Notes: a model not told the origin generated them from the sequence alone. Shown: positions 2,480-24,064, counted from the stretch's first letter. The stretch: 64,000 nucleotides of DNA from an uncultured Bacteroidia bacterium (GCA_903834845.1 CAILKW010000142.1:18-64017), one strand, 5' to 3'. A program made the numbers and translations.

Positions 2480-2481
2480 TA

Positions 2482-5765: not shown

Positions 5766-5949
5766 CAAAAACACAACACCAATCTAAGAAAGCAAATCAG
5801 CTATAATATACAATTTTGTTATTAGAAGGCAATGGAAACTCAATTGAGTATTTCAGCAAAATGGAAAAAGAAACGCAATAATATATCTCTGGAACTGAAT
5901 GGGAGCTATCTCAAGTTTAGTTATATTTCTAATGTTTACTGTTCTTTAG

Positions 5950-6837
5950 ATGAAAGACTTACAGTTATACGATAATATTAAACGTAAAATTATCACGTTG
6001 CGCGGCACTGAAACAATTTTAGATAGAGATTTATCAGTAATGTATGGGGTTGAGACACGCGCATTAAAACAAGCAGTAAAGAGAAATATTACTCGCTTTC
6101 CGGATGACTTTATGTTTGAACTTAGAACAGATGAAATTGATTTTTTGGTATCACAATCTGTGATACCATCGAAGAGTTATTTTGGAGGTTCAAAACCTTA
6201 TGCTTTTACTGAACAGGGTGTTGCAATGCTTTCTTCAGTGTTAAATTCACAAACAGCTATTCAGGTTAGTATCCAAATAATGAAAGCTTTTGTGTTTGTG
6301 AGGTCTATCCTCAATGTAAATTACAATTTTTTCAAACAATTATCTAACTTAGAACAGAGACATACTGACCTTGAAATAAGCACTAACATTCGGTTTGACG
6401 AAGTTTTTAAGGCCATTTCTTCAAAAAAAAATTTGGCTGATCAAGGCATTTTTTACGATGGACAAATATTTGACGCTTATAAATTTGTTTCAGATATAGT
6501 TAAATCAGCAAATAGCACTATTGACTTGATTGACAATTATATAGACGAAAGTGTATTAACCTTACTTTCAAAAAGAAATATAACTGTAAAAGCGACCATT
6601 TATACCAATAAAATATCGAAGCAATTAACCTTAGATTTAGAACGCTTTAATGCTCAATACCCGAAAATCGAGGTAAAAGTGTTTTCCAAATCGCACGATA
6701 GGTTTTTGATTATTGACAATAAAACAGTTTACCATATTGGAGCATCATTAAAAGATTTAGGCAGAAAATGGTTCGCCTTCGCTAAAATCAACCTCGATGT
6801 TGCAGAAATGTCGGCTAAATTGGAAAGGCAAAAATAA
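5950..6837 (+). CDS. ORF6N (KilA-N related) DNA-binding domain protein, intact copy
   Basis: ITLRGTETILDRDLSVMYGVETRALKQAVKRNITRFPDDFMFEL...YAFTEQGVAMLSSVLNSQTAIQVSIQIMKAF is the classic ORF6N signature. The C-terminal half has HDRFLIIDNKTVYHIGASLKDLG. Confidence 0.8.
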   Translation: MKDLQLYDNIKRKIITLRGTETILDRDLSVMYGVETRALKQAVKRNITRFPDDFMFELRTDEIDFLVSQSVIPSKSYFGGSKPYAFTEQGVAMLSSVLNSQTAIQVSIQIMKAFVFVRSILNVNYNFFKQLSNLEQRHTDLEISTNIRFDEVFKAISSKKNLADQGIFYDGQIFDAYKFVSDIVKSANSTIDLIDNYIDESVLTLLSKRNITVKATIYTNKISKQLTLDLERFNAQYPKIEVKVFSKSHDRFLIIDNKTVYHIGASLKDLGRKWFAFAKINLDVAEMSAKLERQK

Positions 6838-7856: not shown

Positions 7857-8074
7857 CGAAAAACATCATTAAATACCTGCAAACTTTATCAACTTCATAG
7901 TTGAGCATTATTTAACTCTTCAAGAGTTTTTTCTTCTTTATTTACTCTTTCTCAAAAAAAAAATTCGTTTATACACAGTTTTCTCCTTTGGAGAAAAAAA
8001 CTTGAAAGGATTTCATAAGTAACTTAAATACAATTATGAGAGCATGTATTTTTTAACCAATATAATGCCAAATA

Positions 8075-8274
8075 ACCTTAGATTTAGAACGCTTTAATGC
8101 TCAATACCCGAAAATTGAGGTAAAAGTGTTTTCCAAATCGCATGATAGGTTTTTGATTATTGACAATAAAACAGTTTACCATATTGGAGCATCATTAAAA
8201 GATTTAGGCAAAAAATGGTTTGCACTCTCGAAAATCAACCTTGATGCCGCTGAGATGATAGCTAAATTAGAATA
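8075..8274 (+). pseudogene. ORF6N-family 3' remnant C
   Basis: Aligns to 6625-6837 of the intact gene (LDLERFNAQYPKIEVKVFSKSHDRFLIIDNKTVYHIGASLKDLGKKWFALSKINLDAAEMIAKLE*). It has no 5' part. Confidence 0.8.
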
Positions 8275-8345: not shown

Positions 8346-9905
8346 ATGCAAACAATTATAAAACGCTTACCAATAGCTAAAACAGAAATTAAAGAATTAA
8401 TAGAAGGCAATTTTTGTTATGTTGATAAAACAAAATTTATAAAAGATTTGCTCGATGACGGTCATGGATATTACTTTTTATCTCGTCCACGTCGCTTTGG
8501 AAAATCTTTATTAATTGATACTATACGTGCCGCTTTTGAAGCTGAAAAAGAAATTTTCAATGGACTGTATATAGAAAATAATTGGGACTGGTCAATAAAA
8601 TATCCGGTTATTACGATTAGTTTTGGTGCCGGAACAGTTGACACTAATGATCAACTTGAAATACGACTAAATGAATTATTAAATAGAAATATTGATAATA
8701 ATAAAATAGAAATTAAAAATGTCTCTATTCCCGGCAGATTTGAAGAACTCATAAAAAAACTCTTCGATAAATTCAATTTGCCGGTAGTAATATTGATTGA
8801 CGAATACGACAAACCTATTCTTGATAATATCACCAATGAAAATGCAAATAAAATAAAAGAAGGACTAAGCAGTTTCTATTCTGTTTTAAAAGATGCAAGC
8901 AAATATCTTAAATTTGTTTTTTTAACAGGAGTTTCAAAATTCAGTAAAACAAACATTTTCAGCAAATTAAATAATATAACTGACATTTCGCTTGTTCCAA
9001 AATATGCAGATATTTGTGGTTATACACAAACCGACTTAGAAACTACCTTTGCGGATTATTTATACAATGTGGACTTGGAAAAAGTAAAAAATTGGTATGA
9101 TGGGTATAATTTTTTAGGAAGTAATTTATATAATCCGTATGACGTTTTATTGTTTTTGTGGGAAAAAAGATACCGTTGTTTTTGGTTCGAAACAGGTACA
9201 CCAACTTTTTTACTTGAACTTATAAAAAAACGAAATTACTATGTTCCCAATTTAGAAAGAATTCAAATCTCGGAATTTGAAATGGGTGAATTTGATATTA
9301 ACAATATTAAATTAGAGATCCTATTATATCAAACGGGCTATCTGACCATTGAGAAATTGGAAGAAATAAACGAAAACTATATTTATACCTTAAAAATACC
9401 CAATAAAGAAGTTAGAAAAGGACTTAACGAATATTTATTAACTGCTTTTTATGCTTCAGGAGTTAATGCTTACGAACGCACAAATGTTTCATTAATATTG
9501 AGCAAGGCATTAAACCAACATAATTTGGACGACCTAAAACTTGCATTTACAACTCTTTTTGCCGGAATACCAAATAATTGGTACACAAACAATAATATTG
9601 CTCAATACGAAGGCTTTTATTGCTCTTTATTTTATGCTTTTTTTGCTGCACTTGGTGTGGAGATAAAAAGCGAAGACACCACAAATAAGGGACGCATAGA
9701 TTTTACGATAATAACACAAACAGCTATATTTATTTTCGAAATAAAAATGAAACACATAAATAAAAAAGCTCTTGCACAAATAAGAGAACGGCAATACCAT
9801 CAAAAATATTTATCTGAAAAAAAAGATATTTATCTGATAGGTTTAGAATTTGACGAAACGGATAAAAATATTTCTACTTTTGAATATGAGAAGGTCATAG
9901 TATAA
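8346..9905 (+). CDS. AAA-ATPase-like protein with C-terminal PD-(D/E)XK (PDDEXK_9-type) domain
   Basis: N-terminus FCYVDKTKFIKDLL..YYFLSRPRRFGKSLLIDTI is the AAA-ATPase_like signature. C-terminus GRIDFTII..IFIFEIKMK gives D...E-x-K. Confidence 0.8.
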   Translation: MQTIIKRLPIAKTEIKELIEGNFCYVDKTKFIKDLLDDGHGYYFLSRPRRFGKSLLIDTIRAAFEAEKEIFNGLYIENNWDWSIKYPVITISFGAGTVDTNDQLEIRLNELLNRNIDNNKIEIKNVSIPGRFEELIKKLFDKFNLPVVILIDEYDKPILDNITNENANKIKEGLSSFYSVLKDASKYLKFVFLTGVSKFSKTNIFSKLNNITDISLVPKYADICGYTQTDLETTFADYLYNVDLEKVKNWYDGYNFLGSNLYNPYDVLLFLWEKRYRCFWFETGTPTFLLELIKKRNYYVPNLERIQISEFEMGEFDINNIKLEILLYQTGYLTIEKLEEINENYIYTLKIPNKEVRKGLNEYLLTAFYASGVNAYERTNVSLILSKALNQHNLDDLKLAFTTLFAGIPNNWYTNNNIAQYEGFYCSLFYAFFAALGVEIKSEDTTNKGRIDFTIITQTAIFIFEIKMKHINKKALAQIRERQYHQKYLSEKKDIYLIGLEFDETDKNISTFEYEKVIV

Positions 9906-9960
9906 AATATATAACAATATATTTCGATTTGGAAAGTGTAATAACTTTTTCGTTAGCATA

Positions 9961-10064
9961 AGAGAGCATCATTAAAAGATTTGGGCTAAAAATGGTTCGC
10001 CTTCTCTAAAATCAACCTTAATGTTGCAGAAATTTTATCAATATTAGAAAAACAAAACATTTAA
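9961..10064 (+). pseudogene. ORF6N-family 3' remnant D (shortest)
   Basis: GAGCATCATTAAAAGATTTGGGCTAAAAATGGTTCGCCTTCTCTAAAATCAACCTTAATGTTGCAGAAAT.. matches 6740-6815. It contains an internal stop. Confidence 0.7.
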
Positions 10065-10098: not shown

Positions 10099-11799
10099 AT
10101 GGTGCAGAACTATTCACGAAAGGAACAATGGGAAATATTGGATGCCAATGTAATGCCTTATCATTGGGAAGGTAAATCCAAATTTAACCACGACGCAAAA
10201 TTCCTAAGTTCATATTATGAGGAAATACTAATATTGGTGTCTTCTAAACTTAATGAGATTCATTGCACCAATAAAGGTCTTCGTTATTGGAGAATTTTTA
10301 TAGGGCCATGGTTGGCTTACTTTATTCAGATGCTGTTCGACAGATGGGAAAGTATTCATCATGCAATTGAAAAATAAGACTAAGGTGGAACTGTTGTATT
10401 GGAATTTGAGGAAGGCTCCTTCGTACCAAACGACATGAATGATTTTATTAAACTTTTTACTGAAGATAATTGGAATCATGAAATTTTCGGAATAATTCTT
10501 AAACAATATACAAAAACCAATTGCATTATTCAAAAACCATCGCACGTAGAATACACCGGTAGTTTATCCAAAAAACAATCAATAAAAAGATACACTAAAA
10601 AACAAACACGATCTTTTCTTTCTAAAATTGCATCAACATTTAAGAGGGATACCGATATGTTTTTAATAAACACTTATTTACCACTATATTTGGAAATATT
10701 GTTGCAGATTAAACTTGGACAGGTACCTCAGTTATGGAAATCCAACATCACACCTGTACGAACAAAACCAAATTTTAATTAACGGAATTGGGCTTTAAAG
10801 CATAATATGGATTCTCCTTTCGATGATTTTGTTAACCGTTTAATTCCAAAACATATTCCTGCAGTATTCTTAGAAGGATATAAAGCCATTGTCAAGCAAA
10901 CGGATGAATTATTGTGGCCCCAAAACCCAAAGGTTATCTACACAAGTAATGTATTATGGCATGATAGCGTTTCAATGGCATATACAGCCGAAAAAACTGA
11001 AAATGGAGCCGGACTTTTATATGGACAGCATGGCGGCTTTTACGGCTCGGCTCTTTACAGTTGGGCAGAAAGACATGAAATTGAAATAAGTGATAAGTAT
11101 TTAACATGGGGTTGGGATGAATTATTACAACCGAAAATAATTCCAACCGGTGTTTTAAAAACTGCCTCCTGGTACAATAATGCTGTTGATTTAAAAAAAA
11201 ATAAAACAAAAAAGCTCTTATTAGTACTGGTATCCACATCAATGTAAAGCTACAGAATTGATAGCGATCCTAAATCCGCAGAATTGATTCAACGTTTTGA
11301 GGAACACTTTCTATTTGTGAAATCGCTCCCAAAAACAATACAAAATCAAATCACTGTTCGGCTTCATAGAAATGAATATGGATGGTATATTGATAAACGG
11401 TGGAAAGATCAATTTTCAGATATTGTATTGGATGATGGTACTTCGAATATGGACCACCTTATGAGAAACAGCCGAATATTCGTCTATACATACAACTCAA
11501 CCGGATATTTAGAATCCTTATCTTGGAATATACCAACACTAATTTTTTGGAATTTAGATTCAAGTCCCCTGAGAGATGATGCAATGCCTTATTATAACAG
11601 GCTTAAAGAAGCAGGTATATTTCACCAAACCCCTCAATCTGCTGCTGCAAAGGTGGCTGAAATCTGGGATGTTGTACCAACATGGTGGAATCAACAGGAA
11701 ATTCAGGAGGCAAGAGAGTTATTCTGTTATCGCTTTGCACGTACCATTAGTAATCCTACGACAGTTCTAAAAAGTATTTTGCTGTCAATTAAAGAATGA
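10099..11799 (+). pseudogene. Putative polysaccharide-locus transferase (LIC12162-family-like, name from memory) inactivated by four in-frame TAA codons
   Basis: ORFs 10099..10377, 10399..10782, 10807..11247 and 11284..11799 are all in the same frame. They are separated only by TAA at 10375, 10381, 10780 and 11245, with no frameshift. Confidence 0.6.
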
Positions 11800-13624: not shown

Positions 13625-14398
13625 ATGAAAGTTCTGATCTTAGCAGGAGGCCTTGGCTCACGGCTCTCAGAAGAAACAACCCTAAGGCCAAAACCAATGG
13701 TAGAAATTGGTGGAAAACCAATTCTTTGGCACATTATGAAAATATATTCACATTTTGGGTATAACGAATTTATCATTCTGTGTGGTTACAAAGGATATAT
13801 GATCAAAGAATTTTTCTCCCATTATTTTCTTCATACATCCGATATGACAATTGACATGACAACCAATACAATTACCCATCATAATAATCATTGCGAACCA
13901 TGGAAAGTAACCCTTGTGGATACAGGGCTCGACACAATGACTGGTGGGCGTATTAAAAAGGTACGGGATTATATTGGTAACGTACCCTTTATGCTTACTT
14001 ATGGTGATGGTGTTGGAGATGTTGATATTTCTAAGCTGGTTAAATATCATCAATCTCACGGTAAAGCAATAACAATGACCGCTGTACAACCTGAAGGAAG
14101 GTATGGTTCTTTGGTTCTTAACGAAAATGAAGAGGTAACCTCATTTCAGGAAAAACCAAAGGGAGATGGTGCATGGATCAATGCAGGTTATTTTGTTTGC
14201 CAACCTGAAGTATTCGACTATATTCCAGATGGAGATCAAATTATTTTTGAACGAGAACCTTTGGAAGGTTTAGCAAGTGCCTGTCAACTTCAAGCTTATA
14301 AACATGACGGATTATGGAAACCCATGGATACCCAACGCGACAAAAGCCAATTGGAAGATTTGATTGAAAAAGGGAAAGCGCCCTGGATACGCTGGTAG
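13625..14398 (+). CDS. rfbF: Glucose-1-phosphate cytidylyltransferase
   Basis: MKVLILAGGLGSRLSEETTLRPKPMVEIGGKPILWHIMKIYS.. at 257 aa is the typical RfbF/DdhA signature and length. Confidence 0.9.
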   Translation: MKVLILAGGLGSRLSEETTLRPKPMVEIGGKPILWHIMKIYSHFGYNEFIILCGYKGYMIKEFFSHYFLHTSDMTIDMTTNTITHHNNHCEPWKVTLVDTGLDTMTGGRIKKVRDYIGNVPFMLTYGDGVGDVDISKLVKYHQSHGKAITMTAVQPEGRYGSLVLNENEEVTSFQEKPKGDGAWINAGYFVCQPEVFDYIPDGDQIIFEREPLEGLASACQLQAYKHDGLWKPMDTQRDKSQLEDLIEKGKAPWIRW

Positions 14399-14445
14399 CG
14401 ATTACGAATTACACGAATTAAAACGAATTTTACGAACAAATTACA
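14399..14445. repeat. ACGAATT/AATTCGT word array (spacer after rfbF)
   Basis: ATTACGAATTACACGAATTAAAACGAATTTTACGAAC holds three ACGAATT words at 9-11 nt spacing. It is followed by CACAG-type words and an 8-bp hairpin (AAAGCACT..AGTGCTTT, about 14491-14520). Confidence 0.7.
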
Positions 14446-14550
14446 CAGTGTCACACAGAAAAAAAAGCACCGTGTCACACAATGTAGTTAAAAAGCACTC
14501 AGTTAAACTCAGTGCTTTCACTGAGATACCTTGTTCAACGAACACTTAAC

Positions 14551-15627
14551 ATGGAAAATCTTTTTGATAGAATATTTACCAATCGCAAGGTTTTGATCAC
14601 AGGGCATACCGGTTTTAAAGGATCGTGGTTGTGTTTATTATTGAATAAATTGGGTGCTGATGTTTTTGGTTATGCGTTAGACCCTCCTACTAACCCTAGT
14701 TTGTTCGTGGAAGCAAAAATTAACGAAATCATGACTTCCTTTATCGGCGATATTCGTGATTACGAAAATCTATTCAAAGTCATTCAGCAAGTTCAACCTG
14801 AAATTGTTATCCACATGGCTGCGCAACCGTTGGTTAGGGAATCATACAAGAAACCTGTTGAAACCTATGCGATCAATGTGATGGGAACAGTACACTTTCT
14901 TGAAGCATGTCGGCATACAAAAAGTGTAAAGGCCATTGTAAATGTAACAACCGACAAATGTTACGCAAATAAAGAGTGGCATTGGGGTTATCGTGAAAAT
15001 GAGCCAATGGGAGGTTACGATCCTTATTCAAACAGCAAAGGATGTTCGGAGCTTGTAACTTCTTCGTACCGCAATTCGTATTTTAATCCTGCAAAATACT
15101 CCGAACATGGTGTGGCTGTCGCTTCAGCTCGTGCAGGTAATGTTATTGGAGGTGGCGATTGGGCTAATGACAGACTTATCCCAGATTTTATCCGCTCCAT
15201 ATCCCAAGGTGAAAAAGTAAAAATCCGCAGTCCTTTTGCAATTCGTCCATGGCAACATGTATTAGAACCTTTAACAGGCTACCTTACTTTAGCTGCAAAA
15301 CTATTTACCGAAGGCGTAAAATATGCCGAGGGGTGGAACTTCGGACCCGATGATGAAGATGCCAAAAACGTGGAGTGGATCACATTAACAATCTGCGAAC
15401 TTTGGGGTGAGGGTGCCTCTTTCAGCATCGACAAAGACCCTCAGCTCCACGAGGCCAATTACCTGAAACTAGACTGTTCAAAATCTAAAGCCGAACTGGA
15501 TTGGACTCCCAAATGGAACATCCAAACAACTTTACAATCCATCGTAGAGTGGAACAAAGCTTATTTGCGTGGTGAAAACATGCGTACAGTATCGGAATAC
15601 CAAATAAATCAATATTATAACAATTAA
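14551..15627 (+). CDS. rfbG: CDP-glucose 4,6-dehydratase
   Basis: VLITGHTGFKGSWL Rossmann start, YSNSKGCSE (YxxxK) and about 358 aa. Start at ATG 14551 (MENLFDR). Confidence 0.9.
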   Translation: MENLFDRIFTNRKVLITGHTGFKGSWLCLLLNKLGADVFGYALDPPTNPSLFVEAKINEIMTSFIGDIRDYENLFKVIQQVQPEIVIHMAAQPLVRESYKKPVETYAINVMGTVHFLEACRHTKSVKAIVNVTTDKCYANKEWHWGYRENEPMGGYDPYSNSKGCSELVTSSYRNSYFNPAKYSEHGVAVASARAGNVIGGGDWANDRLIPDFIRSISQGEKVKIRSPFAIRPWQHVLEPLTGYLTLAAKLFTEGVKYAEGWNFGPDDEDAKNVEWITLTICELWGEGASFSIDKDPQLHEANYLKLDCSKSKAELDWTPKWNIQTTLQSIVEWNKAYLRGENMRTVSEYQINQYYNN

Positions 15628-15686
15628 AAACGAACCACTTCGTGTAATTCGTAATAATTCGTGTAATTCGTATAATTCGTAACAAT
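15628..15686. repeat. AATTCGT word array
   Basis: Four AATTCGT words start at 15646, 15656, 15665 and 15674, a 9-10 nt phasing. They lie immediately upstream of the antitoxin-like ORF. Confidence 0.8.
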
Positions 15687-15941
15687 ATGTTGGCAATAAA
15701 AGCAAATTATCATAATGGCATAATTACTTTTCTCGAAGCCATGCCAGAGAAAGTAAGGAATGCACGGTTGACCATTGTAGTGGAACCGGAGGAACAGGAC
15801 AATAGTTTTATCCCATCACAAGATTTTAAAAGTACACAAATTGATAGTGAAGTTGAATTTGAAGCCATGGGACTGAGTGCGCTTTTTGATGACGAAAACG
15901 ATAAAAACATTAATTGGGAGGATTATTTTGGACTCAAATAA
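15687..15941 (+). CDS. Small antitoxin-like protein (DUF104-like N-terminus)
   Basis: 84 aa, MLAIKANYHNGIITFLEAMPEKVRNARLTIVVEPE resembles the i.A.Y.NG.i..LE.. antitoxin family, with an acidic tail. Lies upstream of and overlapping a MazF-like module. Confidence 0.5.
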   Translation: MLAIKANYHNGIITFLEAMPEKVRNARLTIVVEPEEQDNSFIPSQDFKSTQIDSEVEFEAMGLSALFDDENDKNINWEDYFGLK

Positions 15942-16284
15942 ATTCAACATCGGCGAAATTGTCTTGATCGATTTCCCCTATTCTAATCTAAAAGGCTCTA
16001 AATATAGGCCTGCTGTTATCATTGGAGTAACTGACATTCAGAACGATTTAATCGTTGCATTTGTTACATCAGAAATTGAAAATTATAGTTGGAGCGAATA
16101 TGCTGTTAAGTTCAGCCAGGCACATTTACAATCTGGTACAATTAAACAAGAAAGTATCATACGCTGCGACAAAATGATCACCATCAGTCCGCAACGTATT
16201 TCACTCAGAAAAGTTGGGACATTAAAGAAAACAAAAACTGCAGAAGTTCTCCGGAAATTGTCTCGAATCAGTGTCAATGGGGTA
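15877..16284 (+). CDS. MazF/PemK-like toxin module with no stop codon, continuing in frame into rfbH
   Basis: NIGEIVLIDFPYSNLKGSKYRPAVIIGV... is the MazF/PemK N-terminal signature. Possible starts are ATG 15877, ATG 15889 and TTG 15928. The frame runs uninterrupted into ATG 16285. Confidence 0.6.
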
Positions 16285-17550
16285 ATGGAAACAATTCATG
16301 CCAAACAAGACTTTATCCCTGGCAAATCACGGGTTAATTATGCCGGACGTGTATTCGATGAGAAAGAAATCAACAACGCTGTCAATGCTTCTCTTGATTT
16401 CTGGCTCACTGAAGGACGTTTCTCTGAAGAATTCTCCGAAAAGATTGCAGAATTTATAGGTGTGGAACATGTATTATTGACCAATTCGGGTTCTTCAGCC
16501 AATTTGCTTGCGTTCTCGGCACTGACTTCCGAAAAACTTGGCGACAAACGATTACGTCCGGGAGATGAAGTGGTATCAGTTGCAGCCGGGTTTCCTGCTA
16601 CCGTTACGCCGATTATCCAAAATGGTTTGGTTCCTGTGTTTGTTGATGTTGAGATACCTACCTACAATATTGATGTAGAGATGATGCGTAAAGCGATCAC
16701 GCTTAAAACCAGATGTATCTTTATTGCACATACCTTGGGGAATCCATTCAATATCGATGCCGTAATGCAATTGGCCAAAGAACACGATTTGTGGGTAATC
16801 GAAGACAATTGCGATGCATTTGGAAGTGAGTACAACGGTAAGAAGACGGGATCTTTTGCTCATCTTTCAACCATATCCTTCTATCCTGCCCATCATATCA
16901 CCACAGGCGAAGGAGGTGCAATTTGTACAAATGATCCTCAATTGGCTCAATTAGTTCGTGCTTTCCGCGACTGGGGACGTGATTGCTATTGTGCAGGCGG
17001 TGAAAACAACACTTGCGGCAAACGTTTCTCGCAGTTGTTTGGAAACCTTCCTTTCGGATTCGATCATAAATATGTTTATTCCGAAATTGGTTATAACCTA
17101 AAGATGACAGATATACAAGCTGCAATTGGTGTAGAACAAATCGAAAAACTACCATATTTCTGCGAACGCCGGAAAGCAAATTTTCAGGAATGGGAACGAA
17201 TTTTCACGAAGTATCATGATTACTTTATTTTGCCGAAAGCAACCGAACGAGCCGATCCGGCATGGTTTGCATTTATTGTAACTCTTAAGGAAACCGCTCC
17301 TTTTAAACGTGATGATTTAACAGGTCACCTAAATGCAAAGCTAATTGAAACCCGTAATCTGTTTGCAGGCAACATCACCAAACAACCAGGCTTCATGGGC
17401 AAAAACTGGCGCATTGCCGATCATTTGAATAATACTGACTACATAATGAATAACACTTTCTTCCTTGGTACATACCCTGGACTAACGAAAGATATGTTTG
17501 ATTATGCTGAAGGCGTACTCGATTCATTTGTTCAAGATTTCACGAATTAG
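16285..17550 (+). CDS. rfbH: CDP-6-deoxy-D-xylo-4-hexulose 3-dehydrase (E1, RfbH/DdhC)
   Basis: From METIHAKQDFIPGKSRVNYAGRVFDEKEINNAVNASLDFWLTEGRF.. for about 421 aa. DegT-type PLP/PMP fold with the RfbH-typical N-terminus. It is part of the composite ORF 15877..17550. Confidence 0.85.
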   Translation: METIHAKQDFIPGKSRVNYAGRVFDEKEINNAVNASLDFWLTEGRFSEEFSEKIAEFIGVEHVLLTNSGSSANLLAFSALTSEKLGDKRLRPGDEVVSVAAGFPATVTPIIQNGLVPVFVDVEIPTYNIDVEMMRKAITLKTRCIFIAHTLGNPFNIDAVMQLAKEHDLWVIEDNCDAFGSEYNGKKTGSFAHLSTISFYPAHHITTGEGGAICTNDPQLAQLVRAFRDWGRDCYCAGGENNTCGKRFSQLFGNLPFGFDHKYVYSEIGYNLKMTDIQAAIGVEQIEKLPYFCERRKANFQEWERIFTKYHDYFILPKATERADPAWFAFIVTLKETAPFKRDDLTGHLNAKLIETRNLFAGNITKQPGFMGKNWRIADHLNNTDYIMNNTFFLGTYPGLTKDMFDYAEGVLDSFVQDFTN

Positions 17551-17570
17551 GACGAATTACACGAATCGAA

Positions 17571-17945
17571 ATGCCAGAGATTATCTACAAAGAAGAAAGC
17601 TACAAGATCATAGGGGCATGTATGGAAGTCCATAAAAAGCTTGGTTGTGGGTTTCTTGAAAGTGTATATTCTGAGGCACTCGAAATAGAATTTAAGAAGT
17701 CCGAAATACCCTACGAGCGTGAAAAAAAATTGCCCGTATTTTATGGAGACGTTCCGCTTAAAAAGTATTTCAAAGCCGACTTCGTTTGTTATAATTCAAT
17801 CATCCTTGAACTGAAGGCAACAAAGTTTATTATTGAAGCTGATCACCGTCAAACGGTTAATAATGTAAAAGCCACCAAATTTCAACTTGGTTTGCTTATC
17901 AATTTCGGTACTCCATCATTGACCTATAAACGAATCGTCAATTAG
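17571..17945 (+). CDS. GxxExxY protein (PD-(D/E)XK-like small nuclease-fold family)
   Basis: 124 aa with GCGFLESVY (G-x-x-E-x-x-Y) and D...ELK (ADFVCYNSIILELKA). Flanked on both sides by ACGAATT/AATTCGT words. Confidence 0.8.
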   Translation: MPEIIYKEESYKIIGACMEVHKKLGCGFLESVYSEALEIEFKKSEIPYEREKKLPVFYGDVPLKKYFKADFVCYNSIILELKATKFIIEADHRQTVNNVKATKFQLGLLINFGTPSLTYKRIVN

Positions 17946-17978
17946 TCTAATTCGTGTTCGTGTTATTCGTTTAAATTC

Positions 17979-18671
17979 ATGAAATCAATGCTACAAAAAA
18001 AATATAAATCAGCTGTTGTATCCGTAATAAATCCATTCTCAGGTATCTATACTTTGGAAATTAAATCCTTGGGAAACAAATTCAAATACTCGCCTGGCCA
18101 ATTTCTTCACATTGCGATTGATTCAGATTACGATGGTACCAGCCAATGGCCCGATTCCCGATGTTTCTCGATGCAAAGCAATCCCGACGAAGAAACCATC
18201 CGGATTACTTATGCGGTAAAGGGATCATTTACCAAACAGATGGAACAAAACTTTAAAGTAGGTTCCGAAGTCTGGTTGAAACTACCTTATGGCGATTTGT
18301 TTTCCCAGCCACACAACAAAATTAATACTGTATTTATTGCTGGCGGCACAGGCATCACCCCGTTCCTCTCCCTTTTTACACACGAATCTTTCAACGAATA
18401 CCTCAACCCAAAAATTTACCTCGGGTTTCGTTCCCAGTCTTACAACATATATCAGGATGAACTCGTCAGTTCGAGAAATTCGTCAAAATTCGTGAAATTG
18501 TATAACGAGGACACCGATGGAATTATTGACATCCAAAGCATCTTCAACGAGAATGGCCCGGAACCCAATTATTTTATCTCCGGACCACCGGCAATGATTA
18601 AAGCCTTCAAAAACACGCTGATCGGTAAAAAAGTTCCAGCAGGAAATATACTTACCGATGATTGGGAGTAA
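17979..18671 (+). CDS. FNR-like FAD/NAD(P)-binding oxidoreductase, candidate E3 reductase for RfbH (lacks a ferredoxin domain)
   Basis: 230 aa. FLHIAIDS..RCFSM (FAD-binding RxxS-like) and VFIAGGTGITPFLS (NAD-binding). Sits directly after rfbH. Confidence 0.7.
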   Translation: MKSMLQKKYKSAVVSVINPFSGIYTLEIKSLGNKFKYSPGQFLHIAIDSDYDGTSQWPDSRCFSMQSNPDEETIRITYAVKGSFTKQMEQNFKVGSEVWLKLPYGDLFSQPHNKINTVFIAGGTGITPFLSLFTHESFNEYLNPKIYLGFRSQSYNIYQDELVSSRNSSKFVKLYNEDTDGIIDIQSIFNENGPEPNYFISGPPAMIKAFKNTLIGKKVPAGNILTDDWE

Positions 18672-18747
18672 CATTCGTGAAATTCATCAAAGTTCATTGA
18701 TTTTTTTTCCCTTGATAAGGGCAACAATTCTCAATTTATTATTTCAC

Positions 18748-18755
18748 TAACTTTG
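18748..18755 (+). promoter_or_regulatory. Bacteroidota -7 promoter-like motif TAnnTTTG
   Basis: TAACTTTG lies 22 nt upstream of ATG 18777. The motif is short and the DNA is AT-rich, so a chance match is quite possible. Confidence 0.25.
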
Positions 18756-18776
18756 TAAAACAACAATGAAACCAGA

Positions 18777-19097
18777 ATGACGAGCAGTGACAGAGAAATA
18801 TTAAGCCAAAAACTGATTTCATGCAAAAGCTTTTGGTCTTTTAAAATACCACAGGAAATCCCTGATGATATTTTAATTGAAAAAACTCTGATATACCTTG
18901 ATCTGGTGGATATTAATGTATTGTTTAAACTATTTTCATCAAAAAAGATAAAACATATTTGGCGGTCCCGTGTCGTGATTCAGGACGATTATTACCATAC
19001 GCTAAATAAACTGCTTGCATGGATGTATTTTGAAATAAAAAACCCAGACCGTTACATAAAAATAACAATTCGTAACCACATTAACCATCTTTCATGA
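18777..19097 (+). CDS. Small protein upstream of an AbiEii-type NTase, putative cognate antitoxin
   Basis: 106 aa. SFWSFKIPQEIPDDILIEKTLIYLDLVDINVLFKLF resembles the LFWDvd..ld...fIIeRvL.yG family that I recall upstream of such NTases. The stop overlaps the next start (ATGA). Confidence 0.45.
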   Translation: MTSSDREILSQKLISCKSFWSFKIPQEIPDDILIEKTLIYLDLVDINVLFKLFSSKKIKHIWRSRVVIQDDYYHTLNKLLAWMYFEIKNPDRYIKITIRNHINHLS

Positions 19098-19741
19098 CGG
19101 CCTTAGCACCTAACACTGGTAAACTTTTCGATAAAGTCGCCGCTCTGGAATGTATAAAGCCTTATTTCCTGGTGGGAGGTACCGCTCTTTCTCTGCAACT
19201 AGATACCCGTCTTAGCGAAGATTTGGACTTCATGAACTGGAAGACACAGAAAAGGCAAAAACAAGAGGTTGATTGGTTTGCTATTGAAAAAGAATTATCA
19301 ACAATAGGAACTATTGAAGCCCACGATATTTGGGATTTTAATCACGTTGAATTTTTGGTTGCCGGAGTCAAATTCTCATTTTACAATTCCATGAAATCCT
19401 CTCCGATTGCAGCTCCGGTTTACTTAAAAGACAATTTACAACTTGCCGATATTGAAGCAATCGGTGCAATGAAAATGGAAGTAATGTTGCGCAGAAGCAA
19501 TTTTCGCGATTATTACGATATCTATGCTATACTTCAACATGGAATAGATTTTAAAAAGCTGGTTGATTTATCATTAAATTATTCGGGGCACATTTTAACA
19601 ACCAAAAATCTACTTGCTATACTAATCAATAGTTCACGTTTTAATATTGATCAAGGATTTGAACTGTTAAACCCAAAATATAAGGTAGGCCCTGCCGAAA
19701 TTGAGGCTTATCTGAAAATAAAGATTAAAGCATCATTTTGA
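19094..19741 (+). CDS. AbiEii/AbiGii-family nucleotidyltransferase toxin-like protein
   Basis: YFLVGGTALSLQLDTRLSEDLDFM is the AbiEii (DUF1814) N-terminal signature. 215 aa. Confidence 0.7.
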   Translation: MTALAPNTGKLFDKVAALECIKPYFLVGGTALSLQLDTRLSEDLDFMNWKTQKRQKQEVDWFAIEKELSTIGTIEAHDIWDFNHVEFLVAGVKFSFYNSMKSSPIAAPVYLKDNLQLADIEAIGAMKMEVMLRRSNFRDYYDIYAILQHGIDFKKLVDLSLNYSGHILTTKNLLAILINSSRFNIDQGFELLNPKYKVGPAEIEAYLKIKIKASF

Positions 19742-19784
19742 TTTGTAAAAATATATTACCTGGGTACAAATACTGGTAGTATAG

Positions 19785-19918
19785 AGATTTTTCATAGCAA
19801 GGCATCTGCTATCAACTACTTTATCTACGGCCCTCCGGCAATGATTAAAGCCTTTAAAAACACGCTGATCGGTAAAAAAGTTCCATCAGAAAATATTCTG
19901 ACCGACGATTGGGAGTAA
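19785..19918 (+). pseudogene. Reductase 3' remnant 1 (copy of the end of 17979..18671)
   Basis: ..NYFIYGPPAMIKAFKNTLIGKKVPSENILTDDWE* compares with the intact ..NYFISGPPAMIKAFKNTLIGKKVPAGNILTDDWE*. It has no 5' part. Confidence 0.85.
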
Positions 19919-19976
19919 CTTTCGAGTAATTCGTCTAAATTCGTGAAATCCGCAAAAATGTAATTCGTATTTTCTA

Positions 19977-20990
19977 ATGATTAATTCTGTACACACAAAT
20001 AATTTTGGGCCTTTAACTGATTTACAGTGGAATAAATTGGGGAATATTAACTTGATATTAGGCCCTAACAGTTGTGGAAAAACATTCTTGCTCAAAGCAT
20101 TGTACAGTGCAATCCGCACACTCGAAGATTACCGAAGGGGTGATGATCAGCGGACTGCCTCCGAAATCTTGCAAGAAAAATTATATTGGACTTTCCAATC
20201 CGATAAAATCGGAGATATAGTAACTAAAGGAGCTGAAACGCCCCTTTCATTTAAAATGCAAATTGACAACCACGATTTTCGATATTCATTTGGACGCGAT
20301 ACTGTGAAACAGATCTCTGAATTGGAAAACCATAATCCAAAGCGTGAAAGCAACTCCATATTCCTACCCGCTAAAGAAGTCTTGTCTATTCACCATATCA
20401 TCCTGAAGTCCAGAGAAATTGACAAAGTATTTGGATTTGACGATACCTATCTCGACTTGGCAAGGGCTATAAGGCAGTCACCGAAAAAAGGAAAAAACTT
20501 TGATGAATTTGCAAGGTCTCGGCAGAAATTAGAGGAAATGATTGGTGGCAAAATTGAATTTGATGAATTAACAGGCAAATGGCTTTTCAAAAAAGGCAAT
20601 GCAAAATTTACAATTGGCTCAACTGCTGAAGGGATAAAAAAAATTGCGATTGTTGACACGTTATTAGGAAACCGATATCTTGATGACAAATCGGTTGTAT
20701 TTATTGATGAACCCGAATCTGCCTTGCATCCTGATGCAATTGGCACATTGCTTGATATTGTGGCTCTTCTGGCCGAAAGGGGAATTCAGTTTTTTATGGC
20801 AAGTCACTCCTATTTTGTAGTCAAGAAACTTCTACTCATTGCATTGGAAAAGAACTTGTCCATCCCTGTAATTAGTTTTCAGGAAAATAGGTGGAATATG
20901 GCAGATCTAAGAGAAGGAATGCCATCGAATTCAATTGTCCAGGCCTCAATCGACCTCTACATGAAAGAGGTTGAAATTCAAACTACCTGA
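19977..20990 (+). CDS. ABC/SMC-like P-loop ATPase (AAA_21-like)
   Basis: Walker A LILGPNSCGKTF, Walker B VVFIDEPESALHP and H-loop-like MASHS. 337 aa with no transmembrane or transporter partner. Confidence 0.75.
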   Translation: MINSVHTNNFGPLTDLQWNKLGNINLILGPNSCGKTFLLKALYSAIRTLEDYRRGDDQRTASEILQEKLYWTFQSDKIGDIVTKGAETPLSFKMQIDNHDFRYSFGRDTVKQISELENHNPKRESNSIFLPAKEVLSIHHIILKSREIDKVFGFDDTYLDLARAIRQSPKKGKNFDEFARSRQKLEEMIGGKIEFDELTGKWLFKKGNAKFTIGSTAEGIKKIAIVDTLLGNRYLDDKSVVFIDEPESALHPDAIGTLLDIVALLAERGIQFFMASHSYFVVKKLLLIALEKNLSIPVISFQENRWNMADLREGMPSNSIVQASIDLYMKEVEIQTT

Positions 20991-20992
20991 TC

Positions 20993-21502
20993 ATGGTAAC
21001 AGTAGTAGAATCGGGAATGACTTTTGGTCCTTTCCATGAAGATCAATTTTTTTATATAGAAAAATGTATTGTTTACCGGGCAATTCAAGACCAGGTAAAA
21101 ATGGTCGAATTTGTTTTACATAAACCGAATGGAGTTGATGGACAAATATGGTTGATTGAGGCGAAACAAAGCTCACCTCAACCTAAAAATCAAGCAGATT
21201 GGGAGTTTTATTTGGGTGAACTAAAAGAAAAATTTGAAAATGGATTAAGCCTCTTTCTTGCTTTGTGTTTGAATAGGTATTCCGATCCGGATTTTCACGA
21301 AGCAATAAGAACTGTTGATATGGGGAACATACAATTCAAAATTACTTTAGTTATAAAAGGTCATAAAATCGAATGGTTACCTCCTCTTAAAGATGCACTT
21401 CAACAGAGACTTTTACCCCTTTGCAAATCCTTAAATCTTACACCCAACCCCGTGTTGGTAGTTAACGATGAAATGGCACGCGCGAAAGGATTAATCACTT
21501 AA
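20993..21502 (+). CDS. Uncharacterised 169-aa partner of the ATPase, possible PD-(D/E)XK-like fold
   Basis: Starts 2 nt after the ATPase stop. MVEFVLHKPNGVDGQIWLIEAKQS gives a D/E ... E-x-K arrangement. I recognise no family. Confidence 0.5.
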   Translation: MVTVVESGMTFGPFHEDQFFYIEKCIVYRAIQDQVKMVEFVLHKPNGVDGQIWLIEAKQSSPQPKNQADWEFYLGELKEKFENGLSLFLALCLNRYSDPDFHEAIRTVDMGNIQFKITLVIKGHKIEWLPPLKDALQQRLLPLCKSLNLTPNPVLVVNDEMARAKGLIT

Positions 21503-21552
21503 TTCGTGCAATTCGTGCAATTCGTTTTAATTCGTGTAATTCGTATTTTATA
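21503..21552. repeat. AATTCGT word array
   Basis: AATTCGTGCAATTCGTGCAATTCGTTTTAATTCGTGTAATTCGTATTTTATAAC carries five phased words. The same 3' junction (..GTAATTCGTATTTTATAACAAAACAAATAC) recurs at 22684-22712. Confidence 0.8.
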
Positions 21553-21947
21553 ACAAAACAAATACTGTATTTATTGCTGGTGGCACAGGTATCACCCCTT
21601 TCCTCTCGCTCTTTACCCACGAATCCTTCAACGACTATATAAAGCCAAAGATCTATTTAGGTTTCAGATCTAAGGAATATAACATCTATCAGGCTGAACT
21701 TGATCGAATGATACAACTTCGTAAAGAATCATCGGTCCCTGAGCGCGAAGCAGTCGAAGGGAAATTTGTGAAATCCTACATACAAGAAAGCGATGGTGTT
21801 ATAGATATAGAGGAAATCTTTCTTGACAACGGTATTCATTCGAACTACTTTATCTCCGGCCCTCCTGCCATGATCAAGAACTTTAAGCAGACTCTTCTTT
21901 CAAATGGAGTACCGACAAGAAATGTTCTAACCGACGATTGGGAGTAA
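21553..21947 (+). pseudogene. Reductase 3' remnant 2 (about the C-terminal half)
   Basis: The open frame reads NTVFIAGGTGITPFLSLFTHESFNDYIKPKIYLGFRS..NYFISGPPAMIKNFKQTLLSNGVPTRNVLTDDWE*. It has no start codon before M at 21708. It corresponds to intact 18330-18671. Confidence 0.85.
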
Positions 21948-22038
21948 ATTCGTGAAATTCCTGCCTACGGTAGGCAGACGTTTTGATTCGTGTAATCCGT
22001 ATTTACTAAATATGCGTATCTTAGCAAAAAAAAATGAT

Positions 22039-22245
22039 ATGACAGATGTTCAATTATATAAAAGGTTACAAAATCTCAAACCTTCTTTAAAAGCAGAGGT
22101 TTATGACTTTGTCGATTTTCTTTTGACCAAACAAGAGAAAGATATTAAACTTGTGAAACCTCAGTTTGGGTGCGCAAAAGGCAGGTTTAAAATGGCTCCT
22201 GATTTTGATGCACCACTAGATGATTTAAAAGAATATATGTACTAA
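22039..22245 (+). CDS. DUF2281-like antitoxin (VapB-type partner)
   Basis: MTDVQLYKRLQNLKPSLKAEVYDFVDFLLTKQ...GCAKGRFKMAPDFDAPLDDLKEYMY. The DFDaPL tail is typical. The stop overlaps the PIN gene start. Confidence 0.65.
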   Translation: MTDVQLYKRLQNLKPSLKAEVYDFVDFLLTKQEKDIKLVKPQFGCAKGRFKMAPDFDAPLDDLKEYMY

Positions 22246-22628
22246 TGGATATTTTACTGGATACACATACATTCATTTGGTTCTTTAATGGCGATGAACA
22301 ATTGTCTTTTAAAGCTAAAAAGCTTATAGAAGATTCAAAAATCAGAAAATTTGTAAGTATTGCATCAATTTGGGAGGTTGCAATTAAAATTGGGCTTAAA
22401 AAATTGTTTTTCGATGGTAACGTAAGTGAAGTAGCTGAACTAATTGAAAAAAATGGATTTCGAATATTGCAAATTTCAGTTGGTCACGCTGTTGCTTATG
22501 AAGCTTTGGAGTTGGTTCATCGTGATCCATTTGACAGGATTCTTGTAGCGCAGGGAATGGTAGAAAAGATGACAATAATTACGAAAGACGATAATATTAA
22601 AAAATACATAGTTAAAACAAATTGGTAA
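22245..22628 (+). CDS. vapC: PIN-domain VapC-family toxin
   Basis: MDILLDTHTFIWF.. at 127 aa, with DPFDRILVAQ near the C-terminus. Classic VapC layout. Confidence 0.8.
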   Translation: MDILLDTHTFIWFFNGDEQLSFKAKKLIEDSKIRKFVSIASIWEVAIKIGLKKLFFDGNVSEVAELIEKNGFRILQISVGHAVAYEALELVHRDPFDRILVAQGMVEKMTIITKDDNIKKYIVKTNW

Positions 22629-22707
22629 TAATTCAATTCTAATCAGCCTTTGCAAAAATTCGTGCCATTCGTTTTAATTCTTGTAATTCGTATTTTATAA
22701 CAAAACA

Positions 22708-23099
22708 AATACAGTCTTTATAGCCCGTGGAACAGGCATCACACCATTCCTCTCCCTTTTCACACACGAATCTTTCAACGAATACCTCAACCCGAAAATT
22801 TACTTTGGTTTCATTCAAAAGAATATAACATCTACCAGGAAGAACTGAACCGTATGATGGCAATTCGTACCATTCTTACAAATTTGGGTAATTCGAGTGA
22901 ATGTAATTCGTTTATATCCTTGAAATCTTACAATCAGGATACTGACGGAGTTATTGATATTCAGAAAATCCTAAATGAAAATGGTAAAAACTCGAACTAT
23001 TTTATCTCTGGTCCACCAATAATGATAAAATCTTTCAAGAAAACGTTGATTACCAACGGGATTCCATCTCAAAATGTGCTAATAGTTAACTGGGAATAA
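22708..23099 (+). pseudogene. Reductase 3' remnant 3 (frameshifted)
   Basis: NTVFIARGTGITPFLSLFTHESFNEYLNPKIYFGF.. then a frame break, then ..NYFISGPPIMIKSFKKTLITNGIPSQNVLIVNWE* (ORF 22854..23099). It begins at the same gene position as remnant 2. Confidence 0.85.
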
Positions 23100-23140
23100 A
23101 ATTAATACTAATCGTTTTAAATTCGTGCAATTCGCATTTT

Positions 23141-24064
23141 ATGAGGATTTTATTAACCGGTGCCACTGGGTTTATAGGTTCGAACATAGCCAGAGAACTA
23201 TTGGGAAATGGATACCAGGTTTCTGCAACGCATAGAACTACCTCTTCATTTGAAAAATGTTCTAGCATTAAAGACAAAATAAATTGGATTAACACAGATC
23301 TTCCGGATTGGAAAAAACAAGTAAAAGATGCAAAACCTGATCAATTAATTCATATTGCCTGGGGAGGTATTGAAGCAAAAGATAGGAACAATTGGGATAT
23401 TCAAATTAAAAATTTCTGGTTCTCTAAAGAATTATTCGATATCGCCAAAGAATATGAAATAAAAAAAGTAATTGGAATAGGTTCACAGGCAGAATATGGA
23501 GTATATGGATACCCGGTTAATGAGGAAACAGTGCCAAAGCCACAAGATGCCTACGGATCTACAAAAACATTAACTTGCAATTACCTTCGAAATTTATATG
23601 AAGGTTACCAAACAGAGTGGTACTGGATCCGTATTTTTTCTGTTTTTGGAGAAGGCGAAAACTCTGACTGGTTAATACCCACTGCTATATCAAAACTATT
23701 AAGAAATGAGTCAATCCAACTTACACCATGCGAACAGAAATATAATTACCTGTATATTGGTGATTTTGTGAAAGAAATTTATTCAGTAATTAATTGTTCA
23801 CAAAATAGATCAGGAATCTATAACCTATGTAATAATGAATCTATTGAATTAAAAGATTTATTGATTCAAATTTCAGAAATTATGAATGTATCTTCAGACC
23901 TACTTGAATTTGGGAAAATCCGGTATCGTAACAGCCAAAATATGTTAATTCATGGTGATAATTCAAAATTTAGAAAAACATTTTGTAGGGATCTTAACAA
24001 TTCAGGAAGTTTGAAAAAAGGATTATTAAATTCTATCCGTTATTTTAAAAATAAAGAATCTTGA
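23141..24064 (+). CDS. NAD-dependent epimerase/dehydratase-family SDR (candidate 4-keto or branched-chain reductase, YerF/RfbS/RfbJ-like)
   Basis: MRILLTGATGFIGSNIA Rossmann start and AYGSTK (YxxxK). 307 aa. Confidence 0.75.
   Translation: MRILLTGATGFIGSNIARELLGNGYQVSATHRTTSSFEKCSSIKDKINWINTDLPDWKKQVKDAKPDQLIHIAWGGIEAKDRNNWDIQIKNFWFSKELFDIAKEYEIKKVIGIGSQAEYGVYGYPVNEETVPKPQDAYGSTKTLTCNYLRNLYEGYQTEWYWIRIFSVFGEGENSDWLIPTAISKLLRNESIQLTPCEQKYNYLYIGDFVKEIYSVINCSQNRSGIYNLCNNESIELKDLLIQISEIMNVSSDLLEFGKIRYRNSQNMLIHGDNSKFRKTFCRDLNNSGSLKKGLLNSIRYFKNKES

Follow-up and report, generated by a model that had tools for sequence, protein, structure and literature searches.

An inverted ~31-bp repeat module around a GxxExxY gene and at the cassette junctions of a dideoxyhexose locus in an uncultured Bacteroidia bacterium

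Why should a short word, AATTCGT or its complement ACGAATT, recur in small arrays at one gene junction after another of a bacterial polysaccharide locus? The question is raised by a 64,000-nucleotide (nt) stretch of DNA from an uncultured Bacteroidia bacterium (GCA_903834845.1, CAILKW010000142.1:18-64017), hereafter the window, in which ten junctions of a dideoxyhexose operon (rfbF, rfbG, rfbH, a FAD/NAD reductase and an SDR) carry such arrays. The operon is interrupted by toxin-antitoxin (TA) and defence genes and by a gene for a 124-amino acid (aa) protein of the GxxExxY family. A preliminary description, made from the sequence by itself, had presented the arrays as locus-specific words and had suggested that they bind protein and serve as recombination or insulation sites. 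The explanation that we have come to prefer, giving it slightly better than even chances, is that a family of mini-elements exists in which a GxxExxY gene is bounded by copies of one module, and that the modules at the junctions act as recombination joints.

The arrays are not a product of base composition. Counting both strands, the window holds 39 copies of AATTCGT/ACGAATT, compared with 14.2 +/- 3.8 (maximum 25) in dinucleotide shuffles, and 30 of them lie between 13.7 and 23.2 kb. Between 13625 and 23200, 23 of 31 copies fall outside intact coding sequences, where the non-coding share is 17.5% (binomial p=7e-12). Four arrays have three or more exact copies spaced 8-12 nt apart, at 14404 (minus), 15646 (plus), 17542 (minus) and 21501 (plus), and local block shuffles give about 0.3 of these per window. 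Tandem Repeats Finder assigns periods of 9-10; spacings are 9, 9, 10 and 9, with variable spacers. The enrichment at junctions asserted in the preliminary description is thus real, and the motif is present at each of the ten junctions that it named. Its count of two to five copies per junction is right if one mismatch is allowed and wrong for exact copies, which number, in junction order, 3, 4, 1 (plus 1 in the final rfbH codons), 1, 0, 3, 5, 1, 2 and 1; four junctions have fewer than two and 18672-18700 has none. Similarly, "every intergenic junction" applies to the boundaries between gene modules but not to junctions within them, since the overlapping or fused gene pairs at 15941/15950, 16237, 19094/19097, 19741-19840, 20990/20993 and 22245 have no copies.

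The arms that flank 24 close relatives of the GxxExxY gene align to a fixed three-word consensus. Read outward from the open reading frame (ORF), it runs (G/A)TTCGTG, one base, AATTCGT, three bases, AATTCGTG, AAATT; written whole it is TTCGTG-W-AATTCGT-NNN-AATTCGTG-AAATT, about 31 bp. We built a profile from these arms and searched the window with nhmmer, which returned the ten junctions, one site in the reductase ORF and one weak match elsewhere. Because the profile matches exactly the ten junctions, the "word arrays" are copies of one ~31-bp module, and the AATTCGT words are three internal repeats of that module and not free-standing. The copies are listed below, with the prefix L designating compared loci (L048, L127, L128, L209, L210 and L211) and fragments 2 to 4 being partial reductase copies.

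14401-14437, minus strand: module at the rfbF/rfbG junction, inner end toward rfbG; three exact ACGAATT and one ACGAAC; E=6e-8
15636-15682, plus strand: module at the rfbG/antitoxin junction, stopping 6 nt short of the ATG at 15687; four exact AATTCGT and one CTTCGTG; E=3e-10; 35 nt identical to L048 2075-2109
17522-17566, minus strand: left terminal inverted repeat of the GxxExxY element, providing the final codons and stop of rfbH; E=4e-10
17949-17992, plus strand: right terminal inverted repeat of the GxxExxY element, extending into the reductase ATG (17979/17988); E=9e-7
18668-18695, plus strand: degenerate module (CATTCGTG A AATTCATC) at the reductase/AbiE junction; E=0.003
19915-19968, plus strand: module at the fragment 2/AAA ATPase junction, stopping 8 nt short of the ATG; three exact AATTCGT; E=2e-8
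21499-21551, plus strand: junction of a 169-aa ORF and reductase fragment 3, the stop codon being provided by the first word; five exact AATTCGT; E=5e-10
21945-22011, plus strand: fragment 3/DUF2281 junction, where a GC-rich hairpin nested at 21961-21977 interrupts the module
22657-22696, plus strand: module at the PIN/reductase fragment 4 junction; two exact and two one-mismatch words; E=4e-6
23112-23141, plus strand: module remnant at the fragment 4/SDR junction, ending ..AATTCGCATTTT-ATG; an equivalent array is found in L128, where no cassettes occupy the reductase/SDR site
18467-18503, plus strand: module-like sequence inside the reductase ORF, in frame (..SSRNSSKFVKL..); E=1e-7

An inverted pair of modules bounds a mini-element of about 450 bp with the GxxExxY gene as its sole gene. 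The one intact element occupies 17522-17992, between rfbH and the reductase, and the other nine junction arrays are solo or decayed copies. The in-frame copy within the reductase ORF, complete over its 31 bp (..RS(C/R)NSS(K/Q)FVK..) is kept in all orthologues, at 9481-9524 in L127, 9479-9519 in L128, 5479-5517 in L209, 5479-5515 in L210 and 5483-5518 in L211, even though L210 has no intergenic arrays (E=3e-9); it looks exapted, or is possibly the source of the word type of this locus. Small GC-rich hairpin units (CTGCCTACGGTAGGCAG, tcccgagaggaacgattcggga, tccctgagcgcgaagcagtcgaaggga) are nested in word arrays and in a reductase pseudogene fragment (window 21961-21977 and ~21740-21770; L127 ~9750-9800, 10350-10420 and 11190-11260; L128 4036-4060), and appear to be a second, still smaller repeat family.

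The gene inside the inverted pair belongs to a family whose members, according to the family descriptions, form large paralogous sets.

17571-17945, plus strand: GxxExxY/PDDEXK_3 gene, 124 aa; TIGR04256 2e-40, PF13366 2.5e-36

Residues D70, E80 and K82 and the G27xxE30xxY33 motif of this PD-(D/E)XK protein are conserved, and the D-ExK columns are invariant across relatives. The predicted structure (predicted local distance difference test score 83.7) has as its nearest folds Cas4 SSO0001 and a restriction-endonuclease-like protein, each with a template modelling score of about 0.5, which amounts to only generic Cas4/RecB-like nuclease similarity; a sequence search of the PDB matched no solved structure. 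More than 4,000 database clusters match the protein. PMC3424549 lists PF13366 without an assigned function and with multiple transfers across divisions, and the literature searched held only passing mentions of GxxExxY.

Is the association of gene and module a peculiarity of this copy? In the window the module lies on the minus strand upstream, over the rfbH stop, and on the plus strand downstream, into the reductase start. The same arrangement, ACGAATT upstream and AATTCGT downstream, is seen in L127 and in six of nine GxxExxY genes in loci fetched by DNA pattern, the six belonging to Prevotella and Flavobacterium, whereas in loci of Saprospiraceae, Chloroflexia and Anaerolineae the GxxExxY gene lies beside or between complete AATTCGT hairpins. 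Nearly all of 80 metagenome relatives (55-85% identity) have ACGAATT-type words upstream and AATTCGT-type words downstream, and the innermost of these words often include the start and stop codons (ACGA/ATG...TAA/TTCGT). The close relatives are found next to rfbH, rmlA, fcl-like and ABC-transporter (wzt) genes. In an independent set of 47 non-redundant loci outside the profile, module matches occurred within 130 nt of the gene in 24, at a density of 3.4 per kb close to the gene compared with 0.15 per kb in the remaining sequence, and with the expected orientation, minus upstream in 20 of 22 cases and plus downstream in 16 of 18. One sub-clade has a complete two-armed hairpin on either side of the gene, and GxxExxY relatives occur in Bacteroidota as well as in Chloroflexota. 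The association with GxxExxY genes that the preliminary description had named is therefore borne out, as the arrays are the inverted ends of the window's own GxxExxY gene and of its relatives elsewhere. We rejected the idea that word type is a "specificity code" of protein clades, because words mix within arms and change between close relatives; in viral contigs we found no relatives of the CACAGATT-type GxxExxY.

The words are also not specific to this locus. Taking a single genome for each species, we scanned for three AATTCGT words set 2-3 nt apart, a pattern for which about one chance match is expected (estimated from pattern length and collection size), and found at least 120 loci in about 10 phyla, several genomes having two or three unrelated loci. 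The matches listed include Bacteroidota, Planctomycetota, Chloroflexota, Acidobacteriota, Verrucomicrobiota, Cloacimonadota, Kiritimatiellota, Spirochaetota, Calditrichota, Ignavibacteriales, metagenome-assembled genomes (MAGs) of Deltaproteobacteria and one Clostridia MAG. Among these listed matches the usual form is a hairpin of ACGAATT words, loop and AATTCGT words; ACGAATT..AATTCGT pairs less than 60 nt apart number 56, against 6 in the reverse order. Within the same matches the arrays adjoin gene ends (34) more than gene starts (20), with no preferred sense, and the genes between arrays are diverse, PF13366 being the only recurrent family. Neighbouring arrays in the matched loci use AATCTGTG, AATCCGTG, AATTAGTG and many other words. 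CACAGAT, CACGGAT, CACTGAT and ATTAGTG, which had been taken as separate words of other parts of the window, are variants of one family, CACNNAT/ATNNGTG. As a set, the other words are heterogeneous: the CACAGAT, CACGGAT and CACTGAT elements are two-armed hairpins, CTCCC lies inside an ORF, and the TTCTAAACTCCT array at 58560-58648 has a 16-nt period. Three arrays of the CACNNAT family follow.

511-580: two-armed CACAGAT hairpin, three direct words, A-rich loop and three inverted words; -30.6 kcal/mol, z=-6.84
47482-47515, plus strand: ATTAGTG-word array (GGTTATTAG) between a glycosyltransferase 5' fragment (46764-47450) and an inserted AAA-like module
63736-64000, plus strand: CACAGAT-word left arm followed by a second GxxExxY gene, which starts at ~63777 and leaves the window

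The second gene has a 138-aa PF13366 product on other contigs, where the order beyond the window end is GxxExxY (138 aa), fnlB-like, PF05635 four-helix-bundle and fnlC-like, so that GxxExxY and PF05635, both "intervening sequence" protein families, are interleaved in one pathway. The CTCCC tract (52668-52735) is C-rich and lies within ORF 51426-53903, which has glycosyltransferase domains to residue 371 and a further ~390 residues that match no family; this ORF may be two genes joined through a stop-free low-complexity tract.

Whether the operon needs the modules can be read from orthologous loci. The core genes and inserted units of the window are as follows.

13625-14398: rfbF
14512-15627: rfbG
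15687-16236, plus strand: inserted TA module, an 84-aa ORF and a PemK/MazF domain
about 16237-17550: rfbH
17979-18671: FAD/NAD reductase, candidate ATGs at 17979 and 17988
18777-19741, plus strand: inserted module, a 106-aa ORF and an AbiEii nucleotidyltransferase (PF08843)
19977-21502, plus strand: inserted module, an AAA_21/AAA_15 ATPase (337 aa) and the 169-aa ORF
21952-22628, plus strand: inserted TA module, a DUF2281 antitoxin-like ORF and a PIN toxin (PF10047, PF01850)
23141-24064: SDR, followed by a TPP enzyme gene

The PemK/MazF domain (Pfam PF02452, residues 26-131 of ORF 15877-17550) runs in frame into RfbH with no stop between, a fusion also present in L127, L128 and L209 and missing from L210 and L211. 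In this lineage the modules bound every inserted unit (MazEF-like, AbiE, AAA ATPase and DUF2281-PIN) and abut truncated reductase copies. We compared five orthologous loci, whose reductases are 78-83% identical.

L210: no intergenic modules; no MazEF, no GxxExxY and no cassettes
L211: few modules; an unrelated 444-aa ORF and a GxxExxY remnant between rfbH and reductase
L209: modules present; a GIY-YIG gene, the last 31 GxxExxY codons and the right arm between rfbH and reductase
L128: modules at junctions; MazEF fusion; AbiE pair upstream of rfbF; only a short array between reductase and SDR
L127: module-type words at every junction; GxxExxY element; antitoxin-YoeB and MNT-HEPN-like TA modules, two in all, between reductase and SDR

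Since the orthologous L210 locus has none, the modules are not needed by the dideoxyhexose pathway. The number of intergenic modules rises with that of inserted genes, from 0 to about 10 across L210, L211, L209, L128, L127 and the window, and the TA/defence modules at the reductase/SDR site, which differ, number 0 in L128, 2 in L127 and 3 in the window. The GxxExxY gene is itself absent from L210 and survives as 3' remnants in L209 and L211. The position of the arrays at cassette boundaries, which the preliminary description had pointed out, therefore stands: the same junctions carry variable inserts in related genomes, and this, together with the fragments of core genes at the breakpoints, is what recombination joints would be expected to show. 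Because module number tracks inserts, inserts differ per genome and breakpoints hold partial core genes, we regard the arrays as dispensable, invasive sequences that mark recombination joints. The AbiE pair of the window is 76-79% identical to the pair upstream of rfbF in L128, which is flanked there by AATCCGTG/ATCTGTG words; cassettes move while words stay with the junction. In L209 the GIY-YIG nuclease gene stands beside the GxxExxY 3' remnant with its right arm (4314-4607 and 4855-5002), and different small nuclease genes compete for the rfbH/reductase junction.

At orthologous junctions the words persist as copy number and spacers vary, and small indels within arrays are found in the population. 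These two observations are what one would expect of neutral minisatellites made by slippage, having neither function nor mobility. We find that explanation scarcely credible, as a fixed three-word module recurs across phyla and in inverted pairs around one gene family, and as words are kept while spacers vary.

The partial core genes are best seen in the reductase, whose 3' part is repeated three more times in the window, each time by an array and with 71-90% identity to the intact gene.

19813-19918, plus strand: reductase 3'-end fragment 2, 90% identical to 18566-18671
21552-21947, plus strand: reductase 3'-half fragment 3, about 80% identity
22699-23099, plus strand: reductase 3'-half fragment 4

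Fragments 3 and 4 have the same first codon, directly after an array. Fragment 4, the farthest from the intact gene, has an orthologue-like end (..tgggaataa), and because its end matches the orthologues it is probably the displaced original 3' end of the reductase. Other genes of the window are copied in part as well, and their fragments flank the insertions there. The ORF6N-domain gene (intact at 5950-6837) has four extra 3'-end copies of 82-93% identity (3631-3738, 5564-5768, 8069-8272 and 9953-10057), interspersed with a Schlafen/AlbA_2 gene, HicAB-like genes and an AAA-ATPase/PDDEXK_9 gene; these gene ends are a second kind of junction repeat, distinct from word arrays. The fnlA-like dehydratase gene (intact at 62182-63198) has two extra 5'-end copies (59586-59718 and 60827-60961), and the 5' half of a glycosyltransferase (intact at 48955-50202) is copied at 46764-47450 with 87% protein identity, ending at the ATTAGTG array. 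Both sets of 5' fragments lie upstream of inserted Schlafen, HigB-HTH and AAA-like modules. Such partial gene copies are the pattern of serial single-crossover insertion of DNA carrying part of a target gene. Also spread through the polysaccharide locus are four Schlafen/AlbA_2-domain genes (4045-5436, 50243-51385, 56997-58145 and 59748-60437) and four PF27859 (LIC12162) paralogues in tandem (10099-11799).

How might the modules have come to lie where they do? The unit of GxxExxY gene and arms is, or was, probably mobile, and the apparent locus specificity of the words would reflect common descent, every copy in the locus tracing back to a single invading lineage of the element; the CACAGAT copies in other parts of the window would represent another, that of the second GxxExxY gene at ~63777. 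Two routes can be envisaged from there. Modules in direct orientation could provide short portable homology, through which cassettes would loop out and re-enter by single-crossover (Campbell-type) recombination, a route that leaves core-gene fragments behind. Alternatively, the modules may be cut or bound by the GxxExxY nuclease and hence be recombinogenic. Solo modules and gene-end fragments would then be the homology or break sites for cassette entry and exit, and the net effect would be integron-like, a growing same-strand cassette array made without an integrase. A wider proposal is that GxxExxY genes with their word-array inverted repeats constitute a so far undescribed cross-phylum class of ~450-bp selfish elements, in which the nuclease acts on the arrays and the solo arrays are integrase-free cassette-exchange sites driving TA/defence accumulation in polysaccharide loci of Bacteroidota and other phyla. 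We put this forward tentatively, considering it well short of an even bet.

In metagenomes of the source lake, contig depth over the array at 15639-15675 is 2-13x that of its flanks, and because many contigs leave array edges into unrelated sequence, the module is present in multiple copies in the community and interrupts assembly; the sites in this comparison of depth and joints were 15639-15675, 21510-21544 and 22657-22697. Recombinant joints at arrays in metagenome contigs aligned to the locus were of low depth and short only.

Several observations weigh against the modules having been recombination joints of a mobile element. The array-array joints in Logan contigs may be assembly artefacts. 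To our knowledge a 124-aa PD-(D/E)XK protein is no known transposase type. No target-site duplication was seen outside the arms, and the compared loci included no precise empty/filled pair. Homology of the AbiE pair with L128 covers only 18742-19727 and so ends 45-70 nt from the array. L128 lacks the GxxExxY gene and the left arm, yet has kept the right-arm array. Word type follows protein clade only imperfectly: among relatives at 55-61% identity the words can be CACAGATT or ATCCGCG, and different words are often combined within an arm. Finally, because the accessory modules in the first 12 kb of the window are parted by ORF6N 3' fragments and not by arrays, arrays are not required for cassette insertion.

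A site-specific cassette system, with the arrays as attC-like sites and the recombinase encoded elsewhere in the genome, would account for some of the same facts. In L048 (a Tangfeifania MAG) positions 1300-6500 carry nine or more cassettes of TA type, all on the same strand (MNT/HEPN, Phd-YoeB-like, DUF3791/3990-like and others); a conserved 60-100-nt junction (..CACAAAT..CCTCG.CCCGTTCGTGAAATTCGT..), which ends in AATTCGT words, precedes each of them, and same-strand cassettes are parted by such elements in the window also. In addition, cassette content at one junction differs between genomes, and the series of gene-3'-end fragments is reminiscent of tandem integration at the end of a gene. 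We nevertheless hold this to be unlikely. Domain scans of the sizeable ORFs of the window found no integrase, transposase, RAYT or tyrosine/serine recombinase, and no tyrosine/serine recombinase was found in the L127/L128 gene calls or in the part of the L048 ORFs that was scanned; the junction elements do not fold like attC; and the fragments differ in length and breakpoint (106 nt versus about 400 nt), a better fit to homologous crossovers.

Could the arrays work as RNA instead? Folds of ten junctions as DNA were no better than those of shuffles in 8 of 10 (z 0 to +1.6), the two exceptions being window 21940-22015 (z=-3.55, owing to the nested hairpin) and L048:1335-1415 (z=-1.69). Terminator-like sites in the window number 11 where 7.5 +/- 3 are expected, and only the nested hairpin at 21961-21977 is within a junction; an Rfam 15 scan of the window gave no match at the gathering score. 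Mismatches between arms comprise 27 G-U, 27 A-C and 72 transversions, and we rejected a selected RNA stem since G-U is not in excess over A-C. Because of this absence of a G-U excess, what is conserved must be the words and not pairing in a transcript. Insulation, one of the two roles first suggested for the junction arrays, accordingly finds no footing, the arrays folding no better than shuffles and terminator-like sites not being enriched. The related idea of RNA hairpins serving as terminators, insulators or RNase III sites, the last resembling the excision of an intervening sequence from the GxxExxY mRNA, can draw on the mostly two-armed form of the family elsewhere and its bias to gene ends in the listed matches, on the very stable hairpin at 511-580, and on the ORFs of the PF05635 four-helix-bundle or GxxExxY families that 23S rRNA intervening sequences are reported to carry. 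With 8 of the 10 arrays here one-armed and unstructured, in addition to the results just given, we think it very unlikely.

Recognition as duplex DNA by a host regulator or nucleoid protein, coordinating or silencing the polysaccharide locus from operator-like sites, is a further alternative: duplex binding would fit both the 9-10 bp phasing and the independence of orientation, and the equal numbers of G-U and A-C mismatches are compatible with recognition of DNA words. Against it, the arrays have no candidate regulator linked to them and are missing from orthologous loci, and the same module stands beside unrelated housekeeping genes in many phyla, so that we rate the chance of such operators as slight.

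A role in translation was weighed too. Plus-strand arrays end a few nt before a start codon at 7 of the 10 window junctions and in L048, L127 and L128, most of them at a distance of 3-15 nt. By analogy with a proposal made for TAACTGA repeats (PMC4679880), the arrays might be mRNA-leader sites bound by a factor of translational or post-transcriptional control (S1, Csp or an RRM protein), forming an unstructured, standard initiation region in a phylum without Shine-Dalgarno sites; their failure to fold better than shuffles agrees with this. The orthologous genes in L210, however, have no arrays, the arrays upstream of rfbG and of the GxxExxY gene are in the opposite sense, and the same module occurs in inverted pairs around a gene and inside coding sequence. 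Among the listed matches of the at least 120 loci, moreover, arrays point toward gene starts about as often as toward gene ends, in either sense, with no orientation or start-codon bias. Because arrays have no preferred sense relative to genes and are missing from L210, we argue that they are not an obligatory leader signal; obligatory translation signals are unlikely, and we assign the leader-site explanation a low probability overall. That in this lineage they lie only a few nt ahead of start codons is compatible with a secondary role in expression. The sequencing runs that contain the locus are of DNA only, one metatranscriptome having 5% of the words, and a sigma-70 promoter scan of the window is not informative for this phylum. 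We also rejected a DnaA box, which the word does not match, and a Chi site, as a Chi sequence common to many phyla is implausible. As text strings in the literature, the words returned unrelated primer sequences only.

Recombination joints derived from a module-bounded GxxExxY element thus remain the explanation we favour, and they would have consequences beyond this locus. The GxxExxY (PF13366) family is large, its genes being seen here at scattered positions in loci for cell-surface polysaccharides, and tying it to a defined DNA module provides a concrete substrate for biochemistry. A mechanism is also offered for a common pattern, in which TA and defence genes are interleaved among the biosynthetic genes of O-antigen and capsule operons beside incomplete copies of adjacent genes. 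If the arrays are indeed recombination joints, they represent an integrase-free route to plasticity of surface-antigen loci.

We compared the element with known systems in order to place it. Integrons likewise consist of same-strand arrays of small, often TA-type cassettes with a recurring junction element and variable content at a fixed site. They differ in having an IntI integrase, which was not found in the window, the L127/L128 gene calls or part of the L048 ORFs, and an attC-type fold and core, absent here; the partial duplications of neighbouring genes point instead to homologous or illegitimate recombination. As in 23S rRNA intervening sequences, a small ORF of the same family lies in the loop between complementary arms, but the element lies outside rRNA, and its arms give no evidence of having been selected to pair as RNA. 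Of published repeats the most similar are the TAACTGA heptamers that precede start codons in Beggiatoaceae, Cyanobacteria and Bacteroidetes, for which translational control and gene rearrangement have both been suggested (MacGregor 2015, PMC4679880). These, like the cyanobacterial short tandemly repeated repetitive (STRR) sequences, are also short intergenic word repeats, often a few nt before start codons, with a patchy phyletic distribution suggesting horizontal spread. Those repeats are head-to-tail with a period of 7, whereas ours have a period of 9-10 with variable spacers, a fixed three-word module, inverted pairs and a linked nuclease-family gene.

In logic the nearest system is REPIN/RAYT. 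There the dispersed palindromic repeats stand on either side of a small gene believed to mobilise them (Bertels and Rainey 2011, PMC3116915; Di Nocera et al. 2013, PMC3733652), and the present modules are similarly short palindromic repeats, intergenic and near gene ends, occurring as hairpins and solo arms, with a small associated gene flanked by inverted repeats. Unlike in REPIN/RAYT, the flanked gene encodes a PF13366/TIGR04256 PD-(D/E)XK protein and not a Y1 HUH transposase (PF01797), of which there was none in the window ORFs scanned. Nor does the module consensus TTCGTGWAATTCGTNNNAATTCGTGAAATT have a GTAG/CGTC tag; its arms are three 7-8-nt words at 9-10 nt spacing, the family crosses phyla, and GxxExxY genes appear to be multi-copy (two in or just beyond the window). 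Miniature inverted-repeat transposable elements (MITEs) and small insertion sequences share with it terminal inverted repeats of about 30 bp containing repeated motifs, gene-carrying and gene-less (hairpin) forms, presence or absence between related genomes, and copies in many unrelated contexts, but here no recognised transposase class is involved and no target-site duplication was seen. The element is a member of none of the families tested, and we would file it as a new variant of the REPIN/MITE kind. The tie between gene and module suggests that GxxExxY is the enzyme partner of a REPIN-like repeat family.

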